Source: Minisyncoccota bacterium
Lineage (GTDB): Bacteria; Patescibacteriota; Minisyncoccia; Phycocordibacterales; UBA9973
Assembly (NCBI GenBank): GCA_031413715.1
Contig: JANOFO010000011.1
Location: 18,903-82,902, forward strand
Direction: 5' to 3'
Length of the DNA stretch: 64,000 bases
Each line of letters opens with the position of its first letter. Positions within the stretch are counted from its first letter, which is position 1. The position numbers were made by a program, and so were the translations under genes. Shown piece by piece: positions 1,100 to 38,846 of this stretch. The notes beneath the pieces are model-generated. The model was not told where the DNA came from. It saw only the letters and a list, made by a program, of their open reading frames with translations, and did not search any database.

Positions 1100-1202
1100 A
1101 AATAAAAATAAACGTTCTTAATCGAGCGATATCGTGTGTTATTTCTTAAAGCCTTTTGACCTTAAGGAGAAACACAGATCCTCTCAATACCGAACTCCCC
1201 CT

Positions 1203-1232
1203 ATACTATCAGATGCTAGTGTGAGTGTCAAA
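1203..1232 (-). promoter_or_regulatory. Sigma70-like promoter candidate (TTGACA-N17-TGaTAGTAT) upstream of rpsZ
   Basis: Minus strand reads TTGACActcacactagcatctgaTAGTAT; same -35/-10 pattern recurs upstream of rpsS, tuf, rpsO and nusA. Confidence 0.5.
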
Positions 1233-1400
1233 TGGTAAAGGGATTACTTTTTACAGTAATCCCTTGTCCGGCAAAAGTTTAACTTTTCAGCCGCTTATTA
1301 TTGTTATGGCATTCCTCTATAAATGGAATTATCTATAGAGTCTAAGTCGCCTTATCTCCTTGGAGACTATTTAACTATATTAGGGACTTAATGTCAAGCA

Positions 1401-1422
1401 AAAATCCCCTTTCGGGGATTTT
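1401..1422 (-). terminator. Stem-loop (aaaatcccc-tttc-ggggatttt) immediately after the rplE stop
   Basis: Perfect 9-bp stem in a 330-bp non-coding gap inside the ribosomal cluster; a second hairpin lies at 1238-1265. Confidence 0.45.
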
Positions 1423-1432
1423 ATGGGAAGTC

Positions 1433-1972
1433 TTATTTCTTAAACGGAATTCCGATGAGTTCGAAGAATTCTGTCGCTTCTGGTTTAGTCTTTGCAGTTG
1501 TTACGATCGTAACTGCGAGGCCGAAGAGGTCTTTGATATCTTCATCCCCTGTTTCTGGGAAGATCGTGTGCTCTTTGATGCTCATAGTGAGGTTGCCGAT
1601 ATTATCCACTATTTTTCGTTCAATACCGCGGAAGTCTTTGGTGCGAGGAATAGCTACATTGATAAGTTTGTCGAGGAATCCATACATGCGCGCACCGCGG
1701 AGTGTGACGAGGACGCCAATCGGATCACCAAGACGAACCTTAAAAGATGCGATGGATTTCTTGGCACCGCGAGTCGCAGGCTTCTGGCCAGTAATTTTTG
1801 CCAAGCGCTCCATGATGAACTTGTTGCGATCTTTATCGCGCTTGATCCCTGAGCCTGTTCCAGATGCGACTACTACTTTTACCAAGTGAGGCGCAGCCAT
1901 AGAACCCTTGTAGTGGTGAGCTGCTTTCATCTTGGTATATGCTTTCTTTTCTTTTTGTTTGACTGTTTCCAT
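1433..1972 (-). CDS. rplE: 50S ribosomal protein L5
   Basis: 179 aa; L5-like sequence (…RLGDPIGVLVTLRG…); position between rplX and rpsZ. Confidence 0.9.
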   Translation of the reverse strand: METVKQKEKKAYTKMKAAHHYKGSMAAPHLVKVVVASGTGSGIKRDKDRNKFIMERLAKITGQKPATRGAKKSIASFKVRLGDPIGVLVTLRGARMYGFLDKLINVAIPRTKDFRGIERKIVDNIGNLTMSIKEHTIFPETGDEDIKDLFGLAVTIVTTAKTKPEATEFFELIGIPFKK

Positions 1973-1977
1973 AAAAT

Positions 1978-2196
1978 TTAATTATTCTTCTTGACATTTG
2001 ATACATGGATCGGCATCGCAAGTTCAAGAATCTGGCTTGCTTCTCCGCGCTTCACCGCCTTGCGAGACTTCTTGTGGACATTGACGCCTTCAACAACTAC
2101 CTTGTTTTCACTTGGAATTGCTCGCATGACTTTGCCTTTCTTGCCTTTGTTTGCTCCGGCTATTATTATAACGTTATCACCTTTTTTAATCTTCAT
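1978..2196 (-). CDS. rplX: 50S ribosomal protein L24
   Basis: 72 aa; MKIKKGDNVIIIAGANKGKKGKV KOW motif. Confidence 0.9.
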   Translation of the reverse strand: MKIKKGDNVIIIAGANKGKKGKVMRAIPSENKVVVEGVNVHKKSRKAVKRGEASQILELAMPIHVSNVKKNN

Positions 2197-2271
2197 AAAT
2201 ATTGTTTATATTAATTTCTTTTCATTGCCTGCCCCGTAGCGAGCTTTGCTCTGCTGTGGGGTCTCCGTTAT

Positions 2272-2643
2272 CTATATCACCTCTTGGGCGAGGGATATAA
2301 TCTTCTGATAGCCTTTCTCTGCAAGCTCGCGAGGAATCGGTCCGAAGACGCGACCACCTTTTGGATCCTGCTTGTCTTTTTCAAGTATCACAACAGCATT
2401 ATCATCAAAACGAATGTATGAGCCATCTTTACGGCGCAATGCTGAAACAGTACGTACTACAACAGCTTGATGGACATCCTTTTTCTTCACGCCTTTGCGA
2501 GGCTCGGCAATCTTGACTGAAATGATGACCTTATCACCAATACCAGCATAGCGACGCTTTGATGAGCCAAGTACTTTGAAAACTTTGCCCACTTTACCGC
2601 CGGCGTTGTCTGTGATATTTACTACTGTTCCATCTTGTATCAT
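2272..2643 (-). CDS. rplN: 50S ribosomal protein L14
   Basis: 123 aa; MIQDGTVVNITDNAGGK... canonical L14. Confidence 0.9.
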   Translation of the reverse strand: MIQDGTVVNITDNAGGKVGKVFKVLGSSKRRYAGIGDKVIISVKIAEPRKGVKKKDVHQAVVVRTVSALRRKDGSYIRFDDNAVVILEKDKQDPKGGRVFGPIPRELAEKGYQKIISLAQEVI

Positions 2644-2665
2644 ATAATTTTTATGTAAGCATTAA

Positions 2666-2908
2666 CTACAGCACTTTGAACTTCTTATCTTTTGATATTG
2701 GGCGAGTCTCTTCTATCTCAACGTTGTCACCAATCTTCTTCTCGTTGTTTTCATCATGAGCTTTATATTTCTTGGTCTTCTTTATGCGCTTGCCGTATTT
2801 CGAGTGCTCCACAAAGCGTGTGACTTTCACCACAACTGTCTTGTCCATCTTGTCTGATGTCACTATACCTTTCAATATTTTCTTTGGTTTTGAAATTTTT
2901 GCTTCCAT
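2666..2908 (-). CDS. rpsQ: 30S ribosomal protein S17
   Basis: Start at internal ATG (2906-2908): [29 protein letters not shown]; the longer N-terminal extension of the ORF track would overlap rplP. Confidence 0.85.
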
Positions 2909-2912
2909 ATAA

Positions 2913-3329
2913 TTATCGTGCAACGACACGTGTTGTAACTGGCAATTTTGTACCGGCTTTGCGAAGGGCTTCTTTGGCAACAGCCTCCGTAACGCCATCG
3001 ACTTCAAAAATCACTCGGCCTGGGCGAATATCTAGACAGTACCCCTGAGGATCACCCTTACCCTTTCCCATTCCTACTTCTGCAGGCTTTGCGGTAAATG
3101 GTCTATCAGGGAATATTCTAATCCACATACGGCCAGTCTTGCCGATAGTTCGGGAAGTAACCTTGCGAGCTGATTCTATCTGATTTGATCGGATGCGTCC
3201 ACCAGCTGTAGCTTTTAGTCCGTATGAACCGAAGGCAACAGTAATACCGCGGGTATCAGGAGTGACCTTAGTCATGTCTGTACGACCGGTCTGCCACTTT
3301 CTAAATTTTACTTTTTTGGGTAGTAACAT
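2913..3329 (-). CDS. rplP: 50S ribosomal protein L16
   Basis: 138 aa; [16 protein letters not shown]... canonical L16. Confidence 0.9.
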
Positions 3330-3337
3330 AAAATATT

Positions 3338-4018
3338 TTAACTATTGTTTCTTGAATTATTCTTTACATCATTGAAAACCTCACCTCGGTATATCCATAC
3401 CTTGATACCAATATCGCCGTAACTCATGTGTGCTTTCTCACGGGCAAAGTCTACATCGGCACGGAATGTCTGAAGTGGGATTGATCCGCGCTTGATCTGC
3501 TCGGAGCGTGCGATTTCGGATCCTGCAAGGCGTCCTCCTACATATATACGAGCTCCTTTTACTCCACGAGCAGCCATAATTTTCTCAATAGCTTGCTTGA
3601 TAACACGGCGATATGGAAGACGCTTCTCAAGGCCTTCAGCGATAGCGCAGCCTACGATAGCTGCATCAGCATCAGGGTTAGATACTTCTACGATATCAAA
3701 TTTAAAGTCTTCAGGGATTGCTACGTCTTTCTTTTTCATTGCAGCTACGAGGTCAGCTTTTAGTTTTGCTGCACCTTCACCAGAGCGTCCAATTATCATA
3801 CCCGGTCGTGATGTATGAACCATAATTTTAGTTGCTTTTACATTGCGTTCAATCTCTATGCGAGACACATAGAAACCACGGAGTTTCTTCATAAGGAATT
3901 CACGAATAACAACATCGCTCGCAAGAAGAGTTTTGTATTTCTTATCAGCAAACCAGCGTGACTTCCAGTCACGGATGATTACGAGTCTATGTGCGTATGG
4001 GTGTACTACTTTTGACAT
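3338..4018 (-). CDS. rpsC: 30S ribosomal protein S3
   Basis: 226 aa; KH-domain S3 sequence. Confidence 0.9.
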   Translation of the reverse strand: MSKVVHPYAHRLVIIRDWKSRWFADKKYKTLLASDVVIREFLMKKLRGFYVSRIEIERNVKATKIMVHTSRPGMIIGRSGEGAAKLKADLVAAMKKKDVAIPEDFKFDIVEVSNPDADAAIVGCAIAEGLEKRLPYRRVIKQAIEKIMAARGVKGARIYVGGRLAGSEIARSEQIKRGSIPLQTFRADVDFAREKAHMSYGDIGIKVWIYRGEVFNDVKNNSRNNS

Positions 4019-4031
4019 AATATAATAGAGA

Positions 4032-4460
4032 TTAGCTTTTAGCGGATAGCTTCTTAGGGGTCGACTTTTTTATTTTAGATGCTAGTGTCTTTTTTTCTGC
4101 TTTCTGTATGTTGGTTGCTTTGGTTTTCTGGTCAGGTGTTTTCTCTATAAGGGTAAGCATGACATGGCTGGTGCGCTTGTTGATTCGTGATGCACTACCG
4201 CGGGCGCGGGGCATGGAACGCTTCATAACAATTCCTTTATCTACAGTAAAAGTTGAAATATAAAGATTTTCTTCAGATATGCCTGCTTGTTTTGCATTTG
4301 CTACTGCAGAAGAAAGAAGTTTCTTCATTGGCTCTGTCGCACGCTTTGGAAGCGCGCTCAAATGAACAAAAGCCTCAGCAACCCTTTTGCCTTTGAGGAG
4401 TCCAGCTACAAGGCGAACCTTGCGTGGGGACTGTCTGTAGTTTTTTAAAAATGCTTTCAT
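4032..4460 (-). CDS. rplV: 50S ribosomal protein L22
   Basis: 142 aa L22-like with Lys-rich tail. Confidence 0.85.
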   Translation of the reverse strand: MKAFLKNYRQSPRKVRLVAGLLKGKRVAEAFVHLSALPKRATEPMKKLLSSAVANAKQAGISEENLYISTFTVDKGIVMKRSMPRARGSASRINKRTSHVMLTLIEKTPDQKTKATNIQKAEKKTLASKIKKSTPKKLSAKS

Positions 4461-4472
4461 TACTATTAAAAA

Positions 4473-4817
4473 TTATTTCTTCTTGGTATCAGTGGCTGCT
4501 TTAGCGGATTTTGCTGCAGATATTTCGGCTTCTTTCTTTTTTTCTTCTAGTTCCTTCTGCATTTTGCCTCCGTGTCTGATGAACTTGCGAGTGGGAGAGA
4601 ATTCGCCAAGTCGGTGACCCACCATGTCCTCGCTCACCAAGACTTCTATATGGGTCTTGCCGTTGTGAACTCCAAAGACGAAACCTACCATCTCAGGCGA
4701 GATTACACATGGTCGTGACCATGTTTTAATCATCCCTGTTTCAATCGGTTTCTTACCAGCTATCTTTTTGAGAAGCCGTTCATCTACATATGGTCCTTTC
4801 TTTAGTGATCTGGTCAT
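4473..4817 (-). CDS. rpsS: 30S ribosomal protein S19
   Basis: ATG at 4815-4817 gives [19 protein letters not shown], the canonical S19 N-terminus; the ORF-track start at 4838 is a GTG further upstream. Confidence 0.9.
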
Positions 4818-4855
4818 AGATAATATAAATAAGCTCACAAAGAGCTCGTTCGTCT

Positions 4856-4884
4856 ATACTAGCAAATAGAGAAATAAAGTCAAA
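4856..4884 (-). promoter_or_regulatory. Promoter candidate TTGACT-N16-TGcTAGTAT upstream of rpsS
   Basis: Minus strand TTGACTttatttctctatttgcTAGTAT; a near-identical 35-nt block sits upstream of tuf. Confidence 0.5.
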
Positions 4885-4907
4885 TAGAAGCTCTGCTTGA
4901 TTACAGA

Positions 4908-5366
4908 CTAATTTTTTAATGCAAAACTTTTTTGTAGATTTTCCAAGTCTTGAACATACTGTCTTCTCTTTTCTAGTAGTTTAGTTTTTTGTTGCTCAGT
5001 AAGTTCTCCTCCTCTGTTTTTTAGATTATTTATCTTATTTTTTAAAGAAAAGTAAATTTCTCGCGTCTCATTAATGTCGGTATCAGTTAATTCTTTCATG
5101 TTTTTTATAAAGTGCTCGATAACGACAAAAAGTTGGTTAATTGATACTTCTCTCACTTCATTTTGAAGCCCAATTTGTTCTTCATTTAAAGGTCTACTAT
5201 TAACTAACGCATCAATAAGATCTATTTCTCGTTTCAGGATTAAAATTTTTTCGTTTGAGTCATTTAATTTATCTATGAAGTCTCCTATCTGTTCTAAATT
5301 TTCTCCTTCTTTGAGGATATAGGTGTCTAGACCCTTTTTAACTTGAAAATAATTCTTTTCTTCCAT
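4908..5366 (-). CDS. Hypothetical coiled-coil protein inserted in the ribosomal cluster
   Basis: 152 aa, charged and heptad-rich, no recognizable motif. Confidence 0.6.
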   Translation of the reverse strand: MEEKNYFQVKKGLDTYILKEGENLEQIGDFIDKLNDSNEKILILKREIDLIDALVNSRPLNEEQIGLQNEVREVSINQLFVVIEHFIKNMKELTDTDINETREIYFSLKNKINNLKNRGGELTEQQKTKLLEKRRQYVQDLENLQKSFALKN

Positions 5367-5439
5367 AATGTTTTTATTTTACCATTTTTACATTAAAATC
5401 CAATTGAACATTATGCACTCATATTTTTTATTTCATCTA

Positions 5440-5841
5440 TTAATTAAATTTATAGAGCAGGAGTATTTTCGGCAGGAAAACTATAAGTCCTACGATGCCG
5501 GCCATGGCAGCAGTGATGAGAACTGCGCCTGCGGCGACATCTTTGGTATCGCGAGCATAGGGGTGATAGGTAGGGCTAGTGAGATTGATATCGATCTCGA
5601 TCGCGGTATTGATAGACTCAGCGAGGATCACAAATCCGATTGCAAATATGATGAGCACCCATTCAATGGATGAGATGTGGAGGATGAAGCCAAGATAGAT
5701 CGCAAGTAGTCCAAAGAATATATGGACCCAGGCATTGTGTGTATTTCGAATGAAGATACCAATCCCCCGCCAAGCATTTGTCGTACTTCTGAGTCGAGAG
5801 AGTATAGAGAACCGCTTTTTTTCGGATAGTCTTGTTGCCAT
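5440..5841 (-). CDS. dgkA: Diacylglycerol kinase / undecaprenol kinase family membrane protein
   Basis: Three TM segments; ...AESINTAIEIDINL... and DVAAGAVLITAAMAGIV match the prokaryotic DgkA core (E. coli NSAIE..., SAAVLIAIIVA). Confidence 0.75.
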   Translation of the reverse strand: MATRLSEKKRFSILSRLRSTTNAWRGIGIFIRNTHNAWVHIFFGLLAIYLGFILHISSIEWVLIIFAIGFVILAESINTAIEIDINLTSPTYHPYARDTKDVAAGAVLITAAMAGIVGLIVFLPKILLLYKFN

Positions 5842-5877
5842 AGTGATATTATACACCCCTCAGTCACGATGTGACAG

Positions 5878-5895
5878 CTCCCCTTCGCAGGGGAG
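5878..5895. repeat. GC-rich hairpin repeat CTCCCCTTCGCAGGGGAG
   Basis: Exact reverse complement of the copy at 6264-6283; the two copies bracket the DUF559 gene. Confidence 0.7.
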
Positions 5896-5901
5896 CAAAA
5901 T

Positions 5902-6249
5902 TCACTCAAGTTCTGATTTTATCTTCATAAGCACTCCTTCCATATTTTTATTCACTTCATTATTCCATAAACGAAGAACTTTTATCCCTACAGTCTGTAA
6001 ATAAAAATCTCTTTCTTGATCGTATTCTTTATTTTCTATATGTTGAGAGCCGTCTAATTCGATAATTAGATTTTTCTCTTTGCAATAAAAATCAGCTATA
6101 TACGGTCCAACACCTTGTTGACGTCTGAATTTAACACCAAAGTTTTTACCTTTTAAATAGAACCAGAGTTTATATTCCTCTGGTGTCATTTCTTTGCGCA
6201 ATCGTTTCCTTCGCTCAAGTAATTTTGAATAATTAAATATCTCATACAT
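5902..6249 (-). CDS. DUF559-type endonuclease-domain protein
   Basis: 115 aa; ...KGKNFGVKFRRQQGVGPYIADFYC...IIELDGSQH... typical DUF559 core. Confidence 0.75.
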   Translation of the reverse strand: MYEIFNYSKLLERRKRLRKEMTPEEYKLWFYLKGKNFGVKFRRQQGVGPYIADFYCKEKNLIIELDGSQHIENKEYDQERDFYLQTVGIKVLRLWNNEVNKNMEGVLMKIKSELE

Positions 6250-6263
6250 AGCATTTGTATTTT

Positions 6264-6283
6264 CCTCCCCTGCGAAGGGGAGG
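6264..6283. repeat. GC-rich hairpin repeat CCTCCCCTGCGAAGGGGAGG, inverted copy of 5878-5895
   Basis: Seen directly; a third related hairpin CTCCCCCTTCACAGGGGAG lies at 6342-6360. Confidence 0.7.
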
Positions 6284-6341
6284 TGCCTTTAGGCGGAGGG
6301 GTGAACCCTATTTAGTATACACCCCCTCGCCCTAGCGGGCA

Positions 6342-6360
6342 CTCCCCCTTCACAGGGGAG
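6342..6360. repeat. Third related GC-rich hairpin CTCCCCCTTCACAGGGGAG
   Basis: Same CTCCCC/GGGGAG stem as the two copies flanking the DUF559 gene. Confidence 0.6.
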
Positions 6361-6380
6361 AAGAATCCAAACCCAATACA

Positions 6381-6404
6381 AAAAATACCCTTTCGGGTAT
6401 TTTT
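6381..6404. terminator. Palindromic hairpin aaaaataccc-tttc-gggtattttt just downstream of rplB
   Basis: 10-bp stem with T/A-rich flanks on both strands. Confidence 0.5.
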
Positions 6405-6414
6405 GTTGTATATA

Positions 6415-7260
6415 TTATGCTTTTGCTTTACCGACTTTTCGGCGAGAGACGATCCACATGTTTGAGTATTTTTTCGGTGTACGAGTCTTCTGACCTTTTC
6501 CAGATGGCTTGCCCCACATAGTCTTTGCACGGCGTAGTCCTCTTCCTTGGCGGCCTTCACCTCCACCGTGCGGGTGATCAACTGGATTCATGGCTGTACC
6601 GCGAACAGTTGGGCGGATGCCCTTCCATCGTGAACGTCCTGCTTTACCAAAGTTCTGAAGTTTGTATTCTGAGTTTGAAACTTCACCGATAGATGCATAG
6701 CAGTTCTCGGAAATCTTTCTTACTTCTGTTGATGGCATCTTTATATTCGTGTATCCGTTATCATTTGCCACTACCTGAGCAAATGTTCCTGCTCCGCGCG
6801 CAAGCTTGGCACCATTGCCTGGTTTAATTTCTACATTGTAAACAAATGTACCGATAGGAATGAGTTTAAGCGGAAGACGGTTGCCAGTAGTTAGCGGAGC
6901 TTTTTCGCCAACAGTAAATGTGTCCCCTACTTTCATAGATTTTGGCACAATAACATAGCGTTTCTCACCATCAGCATAAACTACGAGAGAAATAAATGCA
7001 TTGCGGTTTGGATCGTATTCTATTGAAGAAATCTTGGCTGGAATATCGCGCTTGTTGTACATGAAATCTATATCGCGATAAAGACGCTTGTGTCCACCAC
7101 CTTTGTGGCGAGTTGTTATACGGCCTTGATTGTTGCGACCGACAGATCTCTTGAAGCCTTTTGTAAGCGATTTCTCTGGCTTGCTCGTAGTCAAAACATT
7201 GCGGTATGACACAGTCGTTTGATGTCTCTTTGATGGTGTTGTAGGTTTATATGTTTTCAT
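6415..7260 (-). CDS. rplB: 50S ribosomal protein L2
   Basis: 281 aa; ...GRNNQGRITTRHKGGGHKRLYR..., MNPVDHPHGGGEG canonical L2. Confidence 0.95.
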   Translation of the reverse strand: MKTYKPTTPSKRHQTTVSYRNVLTTSKPEKSLTKGFKRSVGRNNQGRITTRHKGGGHKRLYRDIDFMYNKRDIPAKISSIEYDPNRNAFISLVVYADGEKRYVIVPKSMKVGDTFTVGEKAPLTTGNRLPLKLIPIGTFVYNVEIKPGNGAKLARGAGTFAQVVANDNGYTNIKMPSTEVRKISENCYASIGEVSNSEYKLQNFGKAGRSRWKGIRPTVRGTAMNPVDHPHGGGEGRQGRGLRRAKTMWGKPSGKGQKTRTPKKYSNMWIVSRRKVGKAKA

Positions 7261-7261
7261 A

Positions 7262-7591
7262 TTATGTAAATGCTATTTTATCACCTTTTTTCAAGTGAAC
7301 CACTGCCTTTTTACCACCTTGCTTTACGCCCATAATGCCCCCACGCATAACAACCTTTTTTGTTATCTGAGTGATAGAAATTTTTACAGGTGAGACATTG
7401 TATATCATCTTTATAGCTTTCTTTATCTCATTCTTATTAGCAATAGGAGCTACGTTGAAAGTATAGATACCTTTATCAGCTTCTATCGCAGATTTCTCAG
7501 TAATACGAGAACCGAGAATAAGAGGGTGCGTTTTACCTTTCTTGCTGTCATTTTTTTCTTCTTTCTTTAGTTGTGTTTTTTCTTTGGCCAT
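7262..7591 (-). CDS. rplW: 50S ribosomal protein L23
   Basis: 109 aa L23-like with Lys-rich N-terminus. Confidence 0.85.
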   Translation of the reverse strand: MAKEKTQLKKEEKNDSKKGKTHPLILGSRITEKSAIEADKGIYTFNVAPIANKNEIKKAIKMIYNVSPVKISITQITKKVVMRGGIMGVKQGGKKAVVHLKKGDKIAFT

Positions 7592-7597
7592 AAATTA

Positions 7598-8266
7598 TTA
7601 TTTCTTTTCTGTCTTACCACGAAGGAATGCAATACTCTCTGTCGGCTGCGCAATTATCACGTAGCGATGATTGAGCAAATCCACCGGATTAATATTGCGA
7701 ACTTCATCAACTTCTATTGTTGGGATATTAGCAAAACTTTTCTTGACTGTGTCACCCTTGGCAGGAACTGTCAGATATGTATTGCGTTTCTTTCCGCCTG
7801 TTATCTTTTCAAAACCTGAAACAGTGCTCAAGTCCTTCAAGACTGCCACAGCATCTTTCGTTTTTATATTCTTGAGTGCGAGTTCTTCTACGAAAAGGAT
7901 TTGACCCTTACGAAGTTTCTCAGAAAGTACGGTATAAAGTGCTTGAACGCGCATCTTTTTGTTGATTTTCTGTTCATAGCTCTTGTCATTGCGAGGACCG
8001 TGAGTAATACCACCTCCTTTCCAGATTGGGGAGCGTGTAGATCCGTGACGAGCGCGGCCTGTACCCTTCTGGCGCCATGGCTTGCGTCCACCACCCCTGA
8101 CTTCACCTCTACTTTTTGTGTGTGCAACCGGTGTGCGGGCATTAGCCTGCATCGCAGTCACCACTTGGTGAACAAGGTCAGCATTCCACGGAAGACCGAA
8201 AATGTTTTCCGGTACATTGAGCTTGCCGACTGCTTTACCTTTTTGATTGTATACTTGTGTTTCCAT
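7598..8266 (-). CDS. rplD: 50S ribosomal protein L4
   Basis: 222 aa; RGGGRKPWRQKGTGRARHGS motif. Confidence 0.9.
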   Translation of the reverse strand: METQVYNQKGKAVGKLNVPENIFGLPWNADLVHQVVTAMQANARTPVAHTKSRGEVRGGGRKPWRQKGTGRARHGSTRSPIWKGGGITHGPRNDKSYEQKINKKMRVQALYTVLSEKLRKGQILFVEELALKNIKTKDAVAVLKDLSTVSGFEKITGGKKRNTYLTVPAKGDTVKKSFANIPTIEVDEVRNINPVDLLNHRYVIIAQPTESIAFLRGKTEKK

Positions 8267-8275
8267 ACTGTATTT

Positions 8276-8899
8276 TTAGCCTATGATTTCAACCAAGGTT
8301 CCACGTCGTCCGGGAATTGCACCTTTGACTATTAATTGATTATTTTCTTTATCTATAGCAACTATTTCCAAGTTCTTGACTGTTATGCGGTCGCCACCTG
8401 TACGGCCAGCCATGCGCATACCTTTTGGAACTTTGTTACGTAGTCCTCCACCGATAGAACCTGGTTCACGCTCAGAGTGTTTCTGACCGTGAGAACGTGG
8501 GCCACCGTGGAATCCGTGGCGCTTCACGACACCTTGGAAACCTTTACCTTTTGAAAGACCAGTAACTGTAACGATGTCGCCTTTCGCAAACACATCAACA
8601 GTGATCCTGTCTCCAACTGCGATCTCTTCGATATCTCGGAATTCACGTAGATGCTTAAATGCTGTATTACCCTCTGCCCCTTTCTGCGAAGGAAGTGTGT
8701 GTCCGAGATGCGCTTTAGTAGCACGAGATGTTTTTTGTTCATCAAATGCTACTTGGATAGCTGTGTATCCATCTGTGTCAGGGTTTTTGACTTGAGTTAC
8801 TACCAATGGCCCCGCATCTACAACTGTAGCTGGGATCACTGTGCCATCAAGATCAAAGCACTGCATCATATGCTGTTTTTTACCAAGAATAAATTTCAT
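8276..8899 (-). CDS. rplC: 50S ribosomal protein L3
   Basis: 207 aa; MKFILGKKQHMMQCFDLDGTVIPATV canonical L3 N-terminus. Confidence 0.9.
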   Translation of the reverse strand: MKFILGKKQHMMQCFDLDGTVIPATVVDAGPLVVTQVKNPDTDGYTAIQVAFDEQKTSRATKAHLGHTLPSQKGAEGNTAFKHLREFRDIEEIAVGDRITVDVFAKGDIVTVTGLSKGKGFQGVVKRHGFHGGPRSHGQKHSEREPGSIGGGLRNKVPKGMRMAGRTGGDRITVKNLEIVAIDKENNQLIVKGAIPGRRGTLVEIIG

Positions 8900-8903
8900 A
8901 AAT

Positions 8904-8986
8904 GATTAGGTTCTAGTTTCGAGTGGCTAGTTTTTAGGGTCTGGGTCTTCTAGAACCTAGAAACTAATTACTAACAACTAATTAAT
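8904..8986. repeat. CTAG-rich intergenic spacer sharing motifs with 9362-9438
   Basis: Both spacers contain ttaggttctagtttc ... ctagaacctag ... actaacaactaatt(a/t)atttaa. Confidence 0.6.
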
Positions 8987-9361
8987 TTACATCATCTTCA
9001 CATCGATATCGACTCCAGATGGGAGGGATAGGTTTGTGAGAGCTTCGATTGTTTTTGGGTTTGGGTTAAGAATATCTATCACGCGCTTATGGATTCTGAT
9101 TTCAAACTGTTCACGCGCATTCTTGAAAACGAACGACGAGCGGTTGACCGTATACTTTTTAATCTCAGTTGGAAGTGGTATTGGCCCGACTATTTTTGCA
9201 TCATAGCGGAGAGCTGTATCGATAATCTGCTTGACGGATGCATCGAGAATCTTGTTCTCGTATGCGCGCACCCGAATGCGCAATTGGACAGTAGTTGCAT
9301 CTTCTTTCGCTTTTGCTTTCTTAACTACGGTTTTCTTTTTAGTTTTTAATGTTGTGGGCAT
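8987..9361 (-). CDS. rpsJ: 30S ribosomal protein S10 with Lys-rich N-terminal extension
   Basis: 124 aa; TTVQLRIRVRAYENKILD... S10 core. Confidence 0.85.
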   Translation of the reverse strand: MPTTLKTKKKTVVKKAKAKEDATTVQLRIRVRAYENKILDASVKQIIDTALRYDAKIVGPIPLPTEIKKYTVNRSSFVFKNAREQFEIRIHKRVIDILNPNPKTIEALTNLSLPSGVDIDVKMM

Positions 9362-9438
9362 ATCGTTAGGTTCTAGTTTCTAGGTTCTAGGTTCCTGTAT
9401 TTCTACTAGAACCTAGCCACTAGCTACTAACAACTAAT
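9362..9438. repeat. CTAG-rich intergenic spacer (tuf-rpsJ), paralogous to 8904-8986
   Basis: Shared motifs as above; unusual low-complexity CTAG content for an AT-rich genome. Confidence 0.6.
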
Positions 9439-10638
9439 TTATTTAATGATCTTTGTTACGACACCAGCGCCTACGGTCTTGCCACCTTCACGGATTGCGA
9501 AGTGCATAGACTCTTCGAGAGCAACCGGAGTAACAAGTTTGACTGAAAGTTTGACTGTATCACCTGGCATAACCATTTCGACTCCAGTAGGAAGTGTAGA
9601 TTCGCCAGTTACGTCTGTTGTACGTATGTAGAACTGAGGCTTGTATCCAGTAAAGAATGGAGTGTGGCGACCACCTTCCTCCTTTTTCAATATGTATACT
9701 TCACATTCAAATTCTGAATGAGGAGTAACTGTACCTGGCTTTGCAAGAACCTGACCGCGAGTGATGTCTTCTTTCTTGATACCACGGATTAGTATTCCAG
9801 CATTGTCGCCAGCCATACCTTCTTTCAAATTCTTGTTGAACATTTCAATGCCAGTGACTGTAGTCTTTGCAGTGTCCTTGATACCGACGATTTCTACATC
9901 CTCACCAACCTTGACGATTCCGCGTTCAATTTTACCTGTAACGACAGTACCGCGGCCTTCGATTGAGAAAATGTCCTCGATCGGCATAAGGAATGGCTTG
10001 ACGATGTCACGCTCTGGAACAGGGATGTATGTATCGAGTGCGTTTGCGAGTTCAAGTACTTTCATTGCCCATTCATCTGTATTGTCTTTTGCTTCAAGAG
10101 CTTTGAGACCTGAACCACGGATAACTGGAGCATTTGCGCCATCAAAGCCTTGTTTTGTAAGGAGTTCTCGGATTTCTTCTTCGACTAGATCAATCATGTC
10201 TTTATCATCAACCATGTCGCACTTGTTCAGAAATACGATGATTTTTGGTACACCCACTTGCTTAGCAAGGAGGACGTGTTCACGAGTCTGAGGCATCGCG
10301 CCATCAGTTGCAGCAACGACAAGTACCGCGCCGTCCATCTGAGCAGCACCTGTAATCATGTTCTTTATATAGTCCGCGTGACCTGGAGCGTCGATGTGCG
10401 CATAGTGACGAGCTGGAGTCCAGTATTCGTTGTGAGAAAGAGCGATCGTGATACCACGAGCTTTTTCTTCAGGAGCTGAGTCGATTTGATCTACGCCTTT
10501 AATTTTCGCACCGTATCCTTCACCTTGACGTGAGAGGACTTGGAGGATTGCCGCTGTAAGTGTAGTTTTTCCATGGTCAACGTGACCAATAGTTCCCACA
10601 TTTACGTGTGGCTTATCTCTGTTAAATTCTTCTGCCAT
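9439..10638 (-). CDS. tuf: Elongation factor Tu
   Basis: Start at ATG 10636-10638: [27 protein letters not shown]...; full GTPase and domains II/III. Confidence 0.95.
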
Positions 10639-10760: not shown

Positions 10761-10788
10761 ATACTAGCAAATCTAAAAATAAAGTCAA
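10761..10788 (-). promoter_or_regulatory. Promoter candidate TTGACT-N16-TGcTAGTAT upstream of tuf
   Basis: Minus strand TTGACTttatttttagatttgcTAGTAT, near-identical to the rpsS copy. Confidence 0.5.
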
Positions 10789-10841: not shown

Positions 10842-11894
10842 TTATACTTCTATTTCTTTTATCTTCACATCTTTCTCACTATCATCAAGAGGATCATACG
10901 TAGCGTTATTGTCTGGGTCTTTATCGCTGTGACATCCTGGGTCTTGAGTATCTTTTAATTCATCTTCAACATCATTATTATCAACATCATCACTACACTC
11001 TGGATCATCTCCGCCTCCACCACCTAGAGGTTCAGAACAGGATGCAGTGGTACCACCACCAGAACCAACACAACTCCATGTCCATGGGCCAGATCCTGCA
11101 TTATTTGCAGATGATCCTGCATTACAATTAAAGTGTGTAGAAGCACAGATACCATTGACGACAGTAACGGCGCAGACACTTCCATTCCACCAACTGCCCG
11201 ATGCACATATTGCGGTTGCTGTTTTACTACTCAACACTGTTGCCCCATCTTTGAGATTAAATACGGTGGATGGATTAGCAACCCACACTTGAAGAGGGGT
11301 AGCTTTATTGGCAAGTGTGGAAAGGACGCTACTAGTGTTTGCATCTACAAGTTGCGGATTTGTTGCACCAGTTGTATTCCATGTCGCGCCTGTAACCGTA
11401 CAAGTACTTGCGCCGATTGATATCGTACACGTATTCGGCGATACAGTAAGTGAACCAGAAGAAGATGAACCTCCTTCATCAGTTACAACGATGTCTACTG
11501 CATCAAATGCAGAACCTCCCTGATTATCACTTGCACTAAAACGCACTGTATATGTTCCTGGGACCGTCATTCCTGTGATACTTGTTGTAGATGCATTCGG
11601 AGAGGATATAATGGGTGTTACGGGACCAGTCCTGAAATACCAAAGCTGACTCGCGATCGTGCCGTCTGGGTCCGTTGCAGTACCAGTAAGTGTGACAGAA
11701 CTCGTAGGCAGTGTTATCGCTTGGTCAGGACCGGCATTTACTATTGGAGGAAGATTAGGAACTTCAACAGTATACGGGATAGAATAATCGTATTGAGTCC
11801 AACCGGCAGATGTGAGTTTTGGAGAAATCAAGATCGCTAGTACGAAAACAAATCCTAAGGTAATATATTTTTTATTTTTTGAGATTTTTTTCAT
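10842..11894 (-). CDS. Secreted/surface protein with PKD/Ig-like repeat and Cys-rich, acidic C-terminus
   Basis: Signal peptide MKKISKNKKYITLGFVFVLAILISP; NAGPDQAITLPTSSVTLTGTATDPDG PKD-like motif; 14 Cys in the C-terminal third; poly-D/E tail. Confidence 0.7.
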   Translation of the reverse strand: MKKISKNKKYITLGFVFVLAILISPKLTSAGWTQYDYSIPYTVEVPNLPPIVNAGPDQAITLPTSSVTLTGTATDPDGTIASQLWYFRTGPVTPIISSPNASTTSITGMTVPGTYTVRFSASDNQGGSAFDAVDIVVTDEGGSSSSGSLTVSPNTCTISIGASTCTVTGATWNTTGATNPQLVDANTSSVLSTLANKATPLQVWVANPSTVFNLKDGATVLSSKTATAICASGSWWNGSVCAVTVVNGICASTHFNCNAGSSANNAGSGPWTWSCVGSGGGTTASCSEPLGGGGGDDPECSDDVDNNDVEDELKDTQDPGCHSDKDPDNNATYDPLDDSEKDVKIKEIEV

Positions 11895-11898
11895 ATAT

Positions 11899-14229
11899 TT
11901 AGTTACATTTTTTCAAACTATTTGTAGAACAATACATCCCACCTCCAATAGTACATGTACCCGGGAGAGTAGTCGGATTACCCGAACATGTAAGTGCACA
12001 AACTCCTGTGTCACCCCCAAGTACAGGCTGTCCGTACGCAGGATTTTGTATATCGTCGTAGACACAAGGCTGCGTCTCCCCACAAGCAGGGAGAGAACCT
12101 CCACATTGCTGTTTGTTGTGAACAAGATAATCGTCGGCATAGTATGTATGATCGCCATCGAGAATGAAGTTATACAGATCGGTATTTTCTTTTGCTTCAT
12201 AACTAGCATCGACGGACTCAAGTTTTACAACCCCTTCCGATGTGATAAGTGTGTCTCCAACTGCGAGTTCTGTAACTTCAATACCAATATTTTCTTTTTC
12301 AGTTTTCTTTGGATCGATAGACTTCCATCCATCCATCGTTTTGAATGGGTGCTCTGCAGTTACGAAGTGTTTGCCCCCATTGAATGAATAGAGTGCTCCT
12401 CCTTCTAGCTTTGGTCTATGAAATGCAAGAACCGTATTGTTGCTAGTCTCTCCTTTCAATACATCTCCAATTTTGATGTCTTGAATATTTTTCTTTGTTC
12501 CATTAGCAAGCGTCACAAGCGTGTCGGCGATAAAACAATGGGCATAGTATCCAGGATCACCGCCAGGTGGTGTATCAAGAATAACAATGTCATTTTCAAA
12601 GACGCCAGTTGAGAAATCGACGAGGTATGAACCAGGGGTAGAAGGGGCACCAGGGTTAACAAATGCGTCATATACAGTTAGAATTGTGTCTCCTCCTCCA
12701 ATAGTTTGATCTGGAATTAATGTAAGTGTTGAATTTCCTGTTGTAGTTGCTTTTAGGTTAACCAGATTAGAATAAGTTGCGTTTGATACCATTGATGCTG
12801 AGACAGTTATTGGAGTCCCTGGTAAATAATTTGAACTATCTGTAGTTACTGTAGATAGTAAATCCCCGGTAGCACCAGCTGGGTATGTGGTAGCACTTAC
12901 TTTGTGAGCTGGTAACGCTCCTCCTAGCACTGTGAGTATAAAGAATAATACCCCAAGATGGACAGAGTTACCTTTTTTCTTTTTCATCATATATATTGCA
13001 ATGATTATAAGTACAATAACGAGAATTAGCGTAGCACGTGAGTTAAGTGGTTTTGATCCAGAAGATTGAACGCTTTTAAATGCAAAGTCTTTCTGATCAA
13101 GCACAGTCCCTAGACTATCGGCAAGTGCAAGAGAGACTTGCGGGTTGCGACAGAGCCCAGTCACTAAAATAGGAACGTCGGTCACTGGCCGGCTAGGGTC
13201 TTTGGTGATAACCTGGTTGAAAGTTTCACCGCATGACATACCATTTCCATTACTCAAATGTGCAGAGAGGGAGATGACAGCCTTTTCTGGGGATATTGCA
13301 TGAACATCGGTTCTCAAGAACTGATCTCCGAATTTTGTCCATATGAGTGAAAGATGCGCGGTATCGCCTCTCTGATACAAATCTTTATCAAGAGAAAGAT
13401 TTTGGATTGTAGCGCTTGTTCCGCGGATAAAATAATGAAGATCAATCGGATTGGAATTAACTTGCTCACTTGTAAGCGCTACCTTTAGGTCATAGAGCTG
13501 AGGGATTGTTCCCTTTGGCAATAGTATTGAAAAATTTTCGCTCTTTGATGCGACAAATGAAATAGAGCTCGCGTCGCCTCCTGTAGATGGAGCAATGTCT
13601 CCATAAGTAGATCGATATCTTGTTTCAAACGATGGGGTAAGAGAGAGGGCATTATTTGTATGGTTAATTGTATTACATGTGAGGCGAAGGGTTTCATCTG
13701 GTGAAATATCTACACCTTGTAAAAGTCCATAATGTTTGTTGCTCTTTTCGCCTTCAACTTTCAAATAACATGAACTGGTAACTACTTCAAAACCTTTTAT
13801 CGTGGAGTTGAGTGTGACCTTACCTGTGAATGCGACACTGAACGGAAATCCATTCTTGTTATTACTTACCAAGAATAAATTATAGGTGCCATTTAATTCC
13901 TTAGGCGCGGTATAAGTGATTTCCTTGGGGATACTGCTATGTTCTTGCAGGGTAAGTGACTCATCATACGCTTTCTCATCAACGATAGCGTTCCCCGATA
14001 TAAGCTGGACTCCGTATTTGACCCCAGTCTGCTGTCCTTCACGATTTGTGAGATCAAACGAGATATCAAAAACGTTATCCTTCTGAGAAATAATTTTTGC
14101 ATGTTGAATATCTACTGTGGCAATAGGAGTACTTGGTGAGGTAGTACTAGCCGCAAAAGCATTCTGTGAGAAAAAGGCTGAGGAAAAAACGAAAGCGCTG
14201 AAAATTAAAAACGTAGAGATATTCTTCAT
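11899..14229 (-). CDS. Large secreted/membrane protein with C-terminal Hint (pretoxin-HINT / bacterial intein-like) domain and 71-aa Cys-rich tail
   Basis: N-terminal signal peptide; internal TM (aa 399-413) followed by a signal-peptide-like segment (MMKKKKGNSVHLGVLFFILTVLGGALPAHKVSA); Hint blocks CFIADTLVTLANG (aa 565), VTAEHP, and ...DGDHTYYADDYLVHN (aa 705); tail with 8 Cys. Confidence 0.75.
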   Translation of the reverse strand: MKNISTFLIFSAFVFSSAFFSQNAFAASTTSPSTPIATVDIQHAKIISQKDNVFDISFDLTNREGQQTGVKYGVQLISGNAIVDEKAYDESLTLQEHSSIPKEITYTAPKELNGTYNLFLVSNNKNGFPFSVAFTGKVTLNSTIKGFEVVTSSCYLKVEGEKSNKHYGLLQGVDISPDETLRLTCNTINHTNNALSLTPSFETRYRSTYGDIAPSTGGDASSISFVASKSENFSILLPKGTIPQLYDLKVALTSEQVNSNPIDLHYFIRGTSATIQNLSLDKDLYQRGDTAHLSLIWTKFGDQFLRTDVHAISPEKAVISLSAHLSNGNGMSCGETFNQVITKDPSRPVTDVPILVTGLCRNPQVSLALADSLGTVLDQKDFAFKSVQSSGSKPLNSRATLILVIVLIIIAIYMMKKKKGNSVHLGVLFFILTVLGGALPAHKVSATTYPAGATGDLLSTVTTDSSNYLPGTPITVSASMVSNATYSNLVNLKATTTGNSTLTLIPDQTIGGGDTILTVYDAFVNPGAPSTPGSYLVDFSTGVFENDIVILDTPPGGDPGYYAHCFIADTLVTLANGTKKNIQDIKIGDVLKGETSNNTVLAFHRPKLEGGALYSFNGGKHFVTAEHPFKTMDGWKSIDPKKTEKENIGIEVTELAVGDTLITSEGVVKLESVDASYEAKENTDLYNFILDGDHTYYADDYLVHNKQQCGGSLPACGETQPCVYDDIQNPAYGQPVLGGDTGVCALTCSGNPTTLPGTCTIGGGMYCSTNSLKKCN

Positions 14230-37123: not shown

Positions 37124-37137
37124 ATTTACAAAATCTG

Positions 37138-37208
37138 TGCGGGATAAGAGAATCGAACTCTTGCCAGCAGTTTGGAAAACTGCAGTTCTACCACTAAACT
37201 AATCCCGC
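37138..37208 (-). tRNA. tRNA-Gly (anticodon UCC), no encoded CCA
   Basis: Hand-folded cloverleaf: acceptor GCGGGAT/ATCCCGC, anticodon stem GCAGT/ACTGC with loop TTTCCAA, T-arm AAGAG-TTCGATT-CTCTT. Confidence 0.8.
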
Positions 37209-37359
37209 AAATTGAGTGCTGGGAATTTCGACTCTTACAGAGTCAGTGTGCCTTTTCAATTTGCTAACGCAAATAATGAAAAGGTTTTCGAATCCCGGAC
37301 ATACGCAAAGTAGTTTGCGTATCACCCCTACAATACCACGCCAAAGCGCGGTCTTGTTG

Positions 37360-37432
37360 TCGGGGTGCCGGGATTCGAACCCGGAGTCGCCTGTTCCCAA
37401 AACAGGAATGTTAGCCGTTACACCACACCCCG
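37360..37432 (-). tRNA. tRNA-Pro (anticodon UGG), no encoded CCA
   Basis: Acceptor CGGGGTG/CACCCCG, anticodon stem CCTGT/ACAGG loop TTTGGGA, T-arm CCGGG-TTCGAAT-CCCGG. Confidence 0.8.
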
Positions 37433-37490
37433 AAAAATAAACTTCCGCAAAAATACTCACCTATAGTAGCATACTTTTACTTAAAAACAA

Positions 37491-37895
37491 TTATAAAATC
37501 ACATTTTCTATAGTTCTGACTCGTGCTGTTTTATTCTTAATATCCAAATAAACGAGGATAACATCGAACTGCCAAGAGGTGTTCCCTATTCTTTTATGTA
37601 TCAAATATGTCTGGATTGTCCTTGAGAGACGTTTCATCTTCCAGGGATGCATGTTCTCTTCTGGTCTTTTGATAAATGGGTTTTCATCTTTAAAATCAGG
37701 AAGTGCAACACAAGAAACAGATTTGACCTCTACGAAGTACAACTTCCCTTCTTTTTCTGCAATTATATCTATTTCACCCCATTTTTTCGTGTAATTTCTC
37801 TCTAATATGGTGAAATTATGTTTCATGAGAAACTTACAGGCTATATCTTCGCCTAACTGTCCTACTTTTTGAGAATTTGAAGTAAAATTCTTCAT
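37491..37895 (-). CDS. yraN: YraN/UPF0102-family endonuclease
   Basis: GQLGEDIACKFLMKHNFTILERNYTKKWGEIDIIAEKEGKLYFVEVKS matches the UPF0102 signature. Confidence 0.75.
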   Translation of the reverse strand: MKNFTSNSQKVGQLGEDIACKFLMKHNFTILERNYTKKWGEIDIIAEKEGKLYFVEVKSVSCVALPDFKDENPFIKRPEENMHPWKMKRLSRTIQTYLIHKRIGNTSWQFDVILVYLDIKNKTARVRTIENVIL

Positions 37896-38156
37896 AAGTG
37901 TTTCACGTGAAACAGTTAATTATTTATCGGACATATATTTGAATAGTAAATTCTGTCCTTCAAAAATTACCATTATATTGTAAGTCTATTTTTAATAAAA
38001 ATCAATATGCCTGTATTTTGTAGCTTTAGTAAAGAAGTGTCTTTTATCAACAATGCACACATAGTTATCCACAAAAATCTTAATTTAAAAGGTTTTTAGT
38101 AGGGGATAAAAGACGAATAACGGTCACATTGAGATTGAGTATCAGAGACAAAATTG

Positions 38157-38227
38157 TGCGGCGTAGGAGAATCGAACTCCTGTCTCATCCTTGGCAAGGA
38201 CGTGTTCTACCACTAAACCAACACCGC
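38157..38227 (-). tRNA. tRNA-Gly (anticodon GCC), no encoded CCA
   Basis: Acceptor GCGGTGT/ACGCCGC, anticodon loop TTGCCAA, T-arm AGGAG-TTCGATT-CTCCT. Confidence 0.8.
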
Positions 38228-38327
38228 ATTAAAACATGCCAATTATAATATTTTTATTTAAATAAAGCAATTATTTCTTCGGAATTTAGTTGTTTTTCGA
38301 AGAATTTTGTGGTAAGATAGTTTTGCA

Positions 38328-38771: not shown

Positions 38772-38834
38772 CTCAACGGATAGAGCATTTGTCTTCGGAA
38801 CAAAAGGTTGGGGGTTCGATTCCCTCCGGGCGCA
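38762..38834 (+). tRNA. tRNA-Arg (anticodon UCG)
   Basis: Acceptor GCGCCCG/CGGGCGC, D-arm GCTCAACGGATAGAGC, anticodon stem TTTGT/ACAAA with loop CTTCGGA, T-arm GGGGG-TTCGATT-CCCTC. Confidence 0.85.
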
Positions 38835-38846
38835 CCCAAGTTTCCT

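Follow-up and report, generated by a model that had tools for sequence, protein, structure and literature searches.

In the window analysed here, a 64-kb stretch (64,000 nt) of contig JANOFO010000011.1 from the Minisyncoccota assembly GCA_031413715.1, a ribosomal protein cluster of the S10 type is divided between rplB and rpsS. These genes, identified by profile search (rplB, TIGR01171, E 5.5e-117; rpsS, TIGR01050, E 7.6e-34), lie 1,597 nt apart instead of being immediate neighbours as in the canonical S10 operon, and the DNA between them carries, on the operon strand, a DUF559 nuclease gene, dgkA and an open reading frame (ORF) of 152 aa. The most probable explanation is an ancient fission of the cluster in the Nomurabacteria/Paceibacteria lineage, after which an upstream unit (tuf-rpsJ-rplCDWB) would end at a strong intrinsic terminator, and a downstream unit (rpsS-rplV-rpsC and the following genes) would be driven by a near-copy of the 28-nt tuf promoter and open with a short 5′ hairpin that is conserved. 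Flanked by terminator and promoter, the gap DNA would be insulated from both units, so that genes could be gained and lost there without polar effects on the ribosomal genes, and this stretch would have turned into a clade-wide hot spot of variable content. Taken as a whole, this account of fission, separately promoted units and a hot-spot gap has a probability of roughly 80% in our estimation. The window's own gap would then contain an old resident (dgkA), a module-bracketed DUF559 cassette that fits precisely into the stretch from the rplB terminator to the dgkA −10 box, and an orphan gene just upstream of the rpsS promoter. An original prediction, made from the sequence of the window without database searches, had reported the broken gene order and the three same-strand genes; the 1,597-nt gap bears out the former, and the ORF list and profile matches confirm the coordinates and identities of the latter.

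The divided cluster in the window and its relatives

Relatives were collected by a search with ribosomal protein L2, the product of rplB, retaining one genome per species. This yielded 80 loci with L2 72–93% identical to that of the window, all from uncultured Nomurabacteria, Paceibacteria or Patescibacteria of the candidate phyla radiation (CPR), and in each locus L23, L2, DUF559, DgkA, the 152-aa protein, S19, L22 and S3 were located. Canonical rplB–rpsS adjacency was found in none of the 62 species-level loci in which both genes are visible; the distance between them ranges from 152 to 5,713 nt (median ~1.1 kb), and rpsS does not lie within 6 kb 3′ of rplB in at least six further loci (L017, L027, L029, L045, L063 and L075). 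Gaps free of cargo (L057, with 152 nt, L070, L076 and L059) still hold the terminator and the promoter. Because all 62 loci, the cargo-free ones included, have at least 150 nt between rplB and rpsS, the split would be ancestral to a whole clade and not a fresh insertion into an intact operon. In a neighbour-joining tree of L2, S19, S3 and L22, 38 of the 40 species making up a large clade have dgkA in the gap, and no member of a 12-species sister clade does. When the search was made with L2 of the deepest branch (L071), all 120 matches listed were at least 81% identical to the query. Among sister-clade contexts, L175 and L176/L177 have spacers of 520–600 nt with no operon-strand gene, and the L178 contig stops at rplB. 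Look-ups of the exact DgkA and S19 proteins, which could have returned empty-site variants in the same species, gave only the arrangement of the window.

The genes and signals bordering the gap, with gene assignments taken from the ORF list and from the Pfam labels of an identical Logan contig (for the upstream unit also from L2 family matches), are as follows:

10761–10788, minus strand: predicted promoter of the upstream unit, 5′ of tuf, TTGACTTTATTTTTAGATTTGCTAGTAT, of the same 28-nt class as the rpsS promoter
6415–10638, minus strand: upstream transcription unit, with tuf (9439–10638), rpsJ (8987–9361), rplC (8276–8899), rplD (7598–8266), rplW (7262–7591) and rplB (6415–7260)
6375–6408, minus strand: intrinsic-terminator-like hairpin directly 3′ of the rplB stop, AAAAATACCC-GAAA-GGGTATTTTTT, found by hairpin scan (10 pairs, stem 6381–6404)
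4856–4883, minus strand: predicted rpsS promoter, with −35 TTGACT (4878–4883), a T-rich spacer and extended −10 TGCTAGTAT (4856–4864)
4818–4855, minus strand: rpsS leader, with hairpin GAGCUC-UUUGU-GAGCUU (4831–4847) and U-rich tract UAUUUAUAUU, followed by the ATG at 4817
1433–4817, minus strand: downstream transcription unit, with rpsS (4473–4817), rplV (4032–4460), rpsC (3338–4018), rplP (2913–3329), rpsQ (2666–2908), rplN (2272–2643), rplX (1978–2196) and rplE (1433–1972)

A simple terminator finder detected a hairpin with a T-run no more than 160 nt from the rplB stop in 72 of the 80 loci; elsewhere it returned such a structure in 1 of 82 cases after rplW, 9 of 59 after rpsS and 4 of 58 after rplV. 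The promoter-like element that the original prediction had placed before rpsS, where it would re-initiate transcription, is present at 4856–4883, reads TTGACT-16-TAGTAT with an upstream TG, and is kept in the relatives. Taken with its spacer, the 28-nt motif occurs at exactly two sites in the window, before rpsS and before tuf (0 expected by chance), and the related loci together have 49 copies before rpsS, 48 before tuf and 4 at other places, with none on the opposite strand. The same specialised promoter thus appears to head both halves of the split cluster, which would be a simple means of matching their outputs.

The region before rpsS forms a conserved block in which TTGAC(T/A), a T-rich spacer of 17 nt, TG-C-TAGTAT, ~8 nt, a hairpin, a U-rich tract and the ATG follow one another. 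The 61 loci examined gave 59 distinct leader sequences, all of which have TTGAC, and the −10 element is nearly invariant among them. The leader of the window folds with −8.3 kcal/mol, and the mean stem of the set is 5.85 bp, versus 1.24 bp in shuffled sequences. Within the hairpin, the GCUC/GAGC core is invariant, the loop is free in sequence and length (4–7 nt), and the stem shows three A-U to G-C double changes and several G·U wobbles; pairs were counted on a hairpin-anchored extraction, since some rows of the MAFFT alignment of the leaders have the 3′ arm out of register. Wobble pairs and a loop of varying length speak for a hairpin formed in RNA and against a direct repeat bound by protein. 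Since the hairpin would begin 1–3 nt from the predicted 5′ end, a 5′-terminal stabilising stem-loop is the simplest reading, and the presence of the U-tract makes an attenuator possible. At gathering threshold, Rfam matched only four tRNAs in the whole window, with neither a ribosomal protein leader nor a family corresponding to the hairpin modules described below, and a permissive scan of 4300–7400 gave only sub-threshold, microRNA-like chance matches on the long hairpin formed by two of these modules. The tRNA genes form a cluster at 37137–38838, with Gly-tcc, Pro-tgg and Gly-gcc on the minus strand and Arg-tcg on the plus strand.

Two other features of the cluster were observed. In its spc part, rplE and rpsN are separated by an unusually long spacer of 333 nt (1100–1432, minus strand), with a terminator-like hairpin directly 3′ of rplE (aaaatccccgaaaggggattttt) and, at 1203–1231, a promoter-like element, TTGACA-17-TAGTAT plus an upstream TG, after which come a leader of ~100 nt and rpsN; this spacer may represent another operon split or a regulatory RNA. 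In addition, rpmC (L29) is missing between rplP and rpsQ (2906–2915), where the spacer is 4 nt, and no L29-like sequence was found anywhere in the window. The entire dgkA-bearing clade also lacks rpmC at this place (L002–L057 compared; rplP–rpsQ gaps of 8–66 nt), and most of the sister clade keeps it (L062–L079, L175 and L176 compared; gaps of 235–330 nt). Beyond the upstream unit, two large proteins of secreted or surface type (350 aa and 776 aa) are encoded directly upstream of the tuf promoter (10842–14229, minus strand), and the C-terminal region of the 776-aa protein (…CFIADTLVTLANGT…HNKQQC) resembles Hint/intein-like domains by eye.

Genes and hairpin modules within the gap

Between the rplB terminator and the rpsS promoter, the window contains the following features:

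6320–6366, minus strand: degenerate hairpin module F′, forward, core CTCCCCTGTGAAGGGGGA
6314–6319, minus strand: −10-like TATACT after module F′, probable promoter of the DUF559 gene
6259–6305, minus strand: hairpin module R, reverse, TTCACCCCTCCGCC..GGCACCTCCCCTTCGCAGGGGAGGAAAA, with an exact 18-nt core at 6265–6282
5902–6249, minus strand: gene for a DUF559 (Vsr-like PD-(D/E)XK) nuclease, 115 aa, catalytic domain only
5854–5901, minus strand: hairpin module F, forward, ATTTTGCTCCCCTGCGAAGGGGAGCTGTCACATCGTGACTGAGGGGTG, with an exact core at 5878–5895, adjoining the dgkA −10 box
5842–5853, minus strand: predicted dgkA promoter, with −10 box TATAAT (5848–5853) and a 6-nt spacer to the ATG
5440–5841, minus strand: dgkA, prokaryotic diacylglycerol/undecaprenol kinase family, 133 aa (PF01219, E 1e-30)
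4908–5366, minus strand: species-specific orphan ORF, 152 aa

The DgkA protein matches PF01219 over its full length (profile positions 2–102 of 102) with 106 bits against a cut-off of 22.3, and the GTG start listed for it at 5856 is probably wrong, because homologues begin at the ATG at 5841. The gene lies between rplB and rpsS in ~50 related loci. A TATAAT-like box stands 5–9 nt 5′ of its ATG in 43 of 50 loci, at exactly 6 nt in 33, and where dgkA directly follows the rplB terminator, the T-run leads into TTG-TATAAT and then the ATG. Transcription from sigma-70 promoters starts ~7 nt past the −10 box, which here places the 5′ end on the ATG and suggests a leaderless dgkA mRNA. Within the 40-species clade the gene has been lost from the gap in two nested species (L036 and L057), and it is also present in L065. 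The nearest kin of the window (L001–L003, L008 and L033) have dgkA and are missing the DUF559 gene and the orphan ORF. We consider dgkA an old and, judging from its −10 box, separately promoted resident of the gap and not part of a recent insertion. As a side observation, a TATAAT box 6 nt before the ATG, without a Shine-Dalgarno sequence, occurs at dgkA (43 loci) and at DUF559 genes with an upstream module (L083 and L087), and rpsS and rplV have no obvious Shine-Dalgarno sequence; leaderless or Shine-Dalgarno-independent initiation may be common in this lineage.

The DUF559 protein matches PF04480 at profile positions 3–108 of 109 (E 4.5e-36, 123.5 bits, cut-off 20.6), NF007294 (E 2e-25) and PDB 3HRL (E 1.4e-21), the last alignment keeping the E-x-DG-xQH, D..R and LR.WN.E positions. 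Among PHROG families, it also aligns with those of phage HNH and homing endonucleases, in their C-terminal, catalytic parts. Against TIGR00632 (vsr) it scores 14.3 bits (cut-off 97.85), and no methyltransferase adjoins the gene. A defence-island origin was considered and rejected, as PADLOC returned only a 63-residue partial match of the DUF559 protein to DpdF (E 7e-07) and no match for dgkA or the orphan ORF.

The gene is bracketed by structured repeats. Their 18-nt core CTCCCCTGCGAAGGGGAG is found at 5878–5895, inverted at 6265–6282 and as a degenerate third copy at 6343–6360, with no further copy in the window (0 expected by chance). Folded as DNA, modules F′ and R combine into one long hairpin with −35.2 kcal/mol (z −6.8), and module R would be transcribed as the 5′ untranslated region (UTR) of the DUF559 gene. 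The closest homologues, 73–79% identical, are encoded after rplB (L084/85), after ruvB (L083 and L086) and elsewhere (L087), and every homologue fetched has a module of ~48 nt on both sides, in inverted orientation and within ~60 nt. Twenty-three distinct module instances were catalogued and 22 aligned; they take the form TTTT(G/C), hairpin 1, (C/G)TG, hairpin 2, (CT/CG)GAGGGGTG. Hairpin 1 is closed by a C-G pair in 12 copies and by G-C in 8, and hairpin 2 differs in sequence in nearly every copy with the pairing always kept (9, 3 and 13 double changes at the inner positions). Almost all pairs are Watson-Crick, with very few G·U, and this, together with the use of the modules in both orientations, suggests palindromes acting at the DNA level.

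The association of the modules with DUF559 genes extends beyond the window. Across ~1 Mb of Nomurabacteria loci, the core is nearly confined to the surroundings of DUF559 genes; the exceptions are two weak matches, each with 2 mismatches, where the locus lacks DUF559, and a few more distal exact copies in DUF559-bearing loci. A metagenome scan recovered DUF559 genes with identities as low as 36%, in organisms ranging from CPR to gut bacteria, and the flanks of these genes carry modules that are unrelated in sequence and share the same architecture: a C-rich hairpin is followed, in some cases after a second hairpin, by a G-rich tail in which the 3′ arm is repeated. A generic detector found 6.2 modules/kb in the 150-nt flanks of DUF559 genes versus 0.18/kb elsewhere in the same loci, with modules in 65 of 76 non-redundant DUF559 loci and on both sides in 28.

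At the rplB site, the cassette is present at an identical position in the window, L058 and L084/85, and absent from ~50 other species. Alignment of empty and filled sites gives the empty site as terminator-TTTTTTGT|TGTATACTA-N-ATG; in the filled sites (window, L058 and L084) the module-ORF-module unit stands right after the −10 box and is followed by a second TGTATAMT. This sequence, which is also the host −10 box, flanks the cassette on both sides in all three cases, and in the window the second copy coincides with the TATAAT that stands 6 nt 5′ of the dgkA start codon. This repetition may have arisen by duplication of the target site, or the element may bring a −10 box with it; under both readings dgkA would keep a promoter. 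These features suggest that the DUF559 gene and its modules form a selfish, and possibly mobile, nuclease cassette that recognises its own modules; a duplicated TGTATAAT flanking new insertions would support mobility.

A competing explanation, which we regard as rather unlikely, is that the modules are ordinary cis-regulatory or insulating UTR hairpins of a vertically inherited housekeeping gene for Vsr-like repair. It would account for module R lying in the predicted 5′ UTR and for module F supplying the TG of the extended −10, and it fits the DUF559 proteins of the rplB site, which are mutual best or near-best matches (72–78% identity) with a divergence like that of the hosts. However, the modules lie on both sides of the gene and in both orientations relative to it, their nearly exclusive Watson-Crick pairing suits a palindrome at the DNA level, and cassettes 73–79% identical occupy unrelated loci such as ruvB–ruvC. 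The cassette is also found at the rplB site in only 3 of ~60 species, with TGTATAMT on both sides in all three, and modules without an ORF stand in the gaps of other species. GC-rich C-run/G-run hairpin modules of this kind, with no DUF559 ORF, lie in the gaps of L005, L010, L018, L020, L036, L078 and L079, some directly adjoining the rpsS −35 (for example ccctctccttggtaaggagaggggaaataaaTTTGACT in L005), and could be either remnants of cassettes since lost or solo modules as such.

A broader proposal than the selfish cassette of the window is possible though doubtful: stand-alone DUF559 genes with their modules could constitute undescribed selfish or mobile cassettes that cross phyla, with a Vsr-like nuclease that recognises the module hairpins or cruciforms. 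Under this proposal, such cassettes would settle at −10 boxes in spacers running from a terminator to a promoter and would keep the gene of the host 3′ of them expressed by duplicating or supplying a TATAAT box, the rplB/rpsS gap of Nomurabacteria would be one recurrent landing pad, and E. coli ycjD may be one such cassette. No description of the association between DUF559 and modules was found in the literature searched; coverage was incomplete, and novelty is therefore not proven.

The 152-aa ORF has a different distribution. A k-mer search among 5.8e9 clusters and an exhaustive phmmer search among 1.84e9 representatives each returned only the protein itself, Pfam, NCBIfam, PADLOC and PHROGs gave nothing, and among the loci compared it occurs in the window's own species only. 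A chance ORF is unlikely, as none of 2000 shuffles of 4840–5439 gave an ORF of at least 152 aa (the longest reached 118 aa). Its G+C content of 28.8% is undercut by only 2 of 50 ORFs in the window, and its codon usage is ordinary. The original prediction had described the product as a coiled-coil protein; a single-sequence AlphaFold model of low confidence (mean predicted local distance difference test score, pLDDT, 61.5) is mostly helical, with a beta-hairpin and five helices, and does not demonstrate a coiled coil. The stop codon (4908–4910) lies 25 nt before the rpsS −35 (4878–4883), and a search of its flanks gave no convincing repeat, either direct or inverted. The most fitting description is that of a lineage-specific orphan gene, which either originated in the permissive spacer or landed there. 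As a working guess on weak foundations, its product could be a small structural or adaptor protein co-transcribed with dgkA.

Other species carry different cargo in the gap. The 151 gap ORFs fall into 62 sequence clusters, and a Pfam scan of 145 of them matched 50 families, including DAGK_prokar (43), OMPdecase (9), Pribosyltran (7), DHO_dh (5), amidohydrolase (3) and sigma-70 (2). Histidine phosphatases, mechanosensitive-channel and PKD-domain proteins, TatC, an integrase core (rve_3), a YafQ toxin and a GDSL lipase were also found. Cargo lies between the terminator and dgkA or between dgkA and the rpsS promoter, on either strand, and comparable variability was not seen at the rplW–rplB, rpsS–rplV and rplV–rpsC junctions of the same loci. 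The gap thus appears to be a clade-wide hot spot of gene turnover, which would be tolerated because a spacer running from terminator to promoter avoids polar effects on the ribosomal genes. A separate observation concerns pyrimidine synthesis, genes for which (OMP decarboxylase, orotate phosphoribosyltransferase-like, dihydroorotase-like and dihydroorotate dehydrogenase) recur between dgkA and rpsS in ~11 species (L001, L004, L008, L009, L013, L018, L021, L028, L037, L051 and L058) and lie upstream of tuf in L175. Organisms of this kind are usually described as lacking nucleotide synthesis, which makes these genes worthy of note.

Alternative origins of the gap

Several points weigh against an ancestral fission with a selfish cassette in its gap. 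Terminator and promoters, like the leaderless start and the extent of read-through, are predicted from sequence, and all sampled relatives share at least 72% L2 identity with the window, a range that does not fix the age and boundary of the fission. The DUF559 copies of the rplB site, at 72–78% identity, are about as diverged as host proteins, the window copy being 77% identical to the ruvB-site copy in L083, and an ancient vertical inheritance of the gene with many precise losses is possible. Composition marks the DUF559 gene and the orphan ORF as foreign only weakly: their G+C contents are 30.7% (z −1.7) and 28.8% (z −2.1) in a window averaging 38.9%, and the codon usage of neither is aberrant.

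Among the rivals to an insulated hot spot, the strongest holds that the location itself was selected, the gap genes having been recruited for co-regulation with the ribosomal genes through read-through and a shared growth-rate promoter. The retention of dgkA in 38 of the 40 clade species, the recurrence of pyrimidine genes and the lack of an evident terminator between dgkA, the orphan ORF and the rpsS promoter in the window all speak for it. Yet dgkA has its own −10 box directly after a strong terminator and has been lost from the gap at least twice (L036 and L057). The remaining cargo is mixed, including toxin-antitoxin, transposase-like, sigma factor, surface protein and orphan genes, many of which lie on the opposite strand, and we judge selected co-regulation improbable.

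Less credible still is the recent insertion of a single block, comprising the DUF559 gene, dgkA and the orphan ORF, into an intact S10 operon, with a fortuitous or imported promoter restoring rpsS expression. The three genes do break the canonical order, and two of them, the DUF559 gene and the orphan ORF, are lower in G+C than the ribosomal genes (42–47%) and missing from the nearest relatives. However, dgkA occupies this position in ~50 species and has a G+C content in line with the operon (45.3%), the terminator and the rpsS promoter and leader are kept even at empty gaps, and the rpsS promoter is of the same class as the tuf promoter throughout the clade. The three genes differ in phyletic age and are therefore not one block. 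The suggestion in the original prediction that selfish or accessory DNA had entered the operon accordingly survives for the DUF559 gene, which looks selfish, and fails as a recent insertion into an intact operon, dgkA being ancient. Of the comparisons proposed with it, gene order in relatives revealed a stable, ancient arrangement for dgkA and not for the DUF559 gene or the 152-aa ORF, and composition gave low G+C in these two as a weak sign of foreignness, normal codon usage and an operon-like dgkA.

The assembly error at 4.9–6.3 kb raised as a caveat to the original prediction, which the metagenome-assembled source and a fall in G+C to 28–30% around 4.8–5.4 kb might have suggested, is excluded by Logan contigs of two separate runs, one of 8,052 bp (SRR20217197), separately assembled and 100% identical to window 2348–10399, and one (SRR20217205) 100% identical to 4435–5495, covering dgkA, the ORF and rpsS; moreover, ~60 other genomes have the same split and dgkA.

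Relation to known systems and implications

In E. coli and B. subtilis, the S10 operon runs rpsJ-rplC-rplD-rplW-rplB-rpsS-rplV-rpsC-rplP-rpmC-rpsQ, with one promoter and an L4-responsive leader. The genes and their order on each side of the break in the window are the same, and tuf lies upstream of the S10 genes as in many bacteria. Unlike that operon, the sampled loci never have rplB and rpsS adjacent and possess a terminator and a second promoter of the tuf class; the window has no Rfam match to a ribosomal protein leader and no rpmC between rplP and rpsQ. The gap resembles chromosomal integration hot spots and islets in its conserved flanks and variable content, including toxin-antitoxin, transposase-like and orphan genes. 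It differs from them in that it is not located at a tRNA or transfer-messenger RNA gene, that the window contains no integrase (an integrase-core domain occurs in one relative), and that the site lies inside the most conserved bacterial gene cluster.

The DUF559 cassette shares traits with two kinds of selfish element. To our knowledge, homing endonuclease genes normally occur without structured repeat modules, whereas the DUF559 gene of the window is flanked by them; it is also free-standing, with no intron or intein and no N-terminal DNA-binding domain. Like the homing endonuclease I-Bth0305I (PDB 3r3p), whose catalytic domain is grouped with Vsr/DUF559 (PMC3424549), its product has a Vsr-like PD-(D/E)XK fold, and its patchy presence at one intergenic site among related genomes is a trait of free-standing homing endonuclease genes. 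The arrangement of a small nuclease gene between inverted hairpin repeats with co-varying stems recalls REP/RAYT (REPIN) and IS200/IS605-type elements, but the enzyme is of the PD-(D/E)XK type and not a Y1/HUH transposase. Unlike those of REP/RAYT systems, the modules are not dispersed, having no extra copy in 64 kb and lying almost only beside DUF559 in ~1 Mb of relatives. The same DUF559 family includes E. coli YcjD and N. gonorrhoeae NGO0050 (PDB 3HRL). The E. coli ycjD locus also has a C-rich hairpin with a G-rich tail, cccctctggggagagggttagggtgagggg, which shares its architecture with the DUF559 modules found elsewhere and differs from them in sequence. As a further observation at this locus, a partial duplicate of the ycjD 3′ end lies 3′ of the gene in E. 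coli K-12 (NC_000913.3, 1351040–1351410).

Operon fissions and integration hot spots are known kinds of event. For this split of the S10 cluster, no report was found in the literature searched (S10 operon/Patescibacteria and rplB/rpsS/CPR), the coverage of which was incomplete. Particular to the present case are the location in the S10 cluster, the duplicated promoter, the conserved terminator and leader, and the clade-wide turnover of cargo, and the association of DUF559 with the modules is the most novel element.

Few gene adjacencies in bacteria are as conserved as the rplB–rpsS junction, and CPR phylogenomics is built on the block of 16 ribosomal proteins. The physical division of this block in one clade, by an insert that sometimes exceeds 6 kb and carries metabolic genes such as those of pyrimidine synthesis, matters for binning and for the logic of marker contigs. 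For operon evolution, it would be a case in which an essential operon was divided and stoichiometry kept by means of a duplicated promoter. The gap may also serve as a naturally insulated safe harbour in organisms that are not yet engineerable. In addition, the link between DUF559 genes and hairpin modules across phyla offers a concrete hypothesis for a widespread domain, one that could be tested in E. coli through ycjD.

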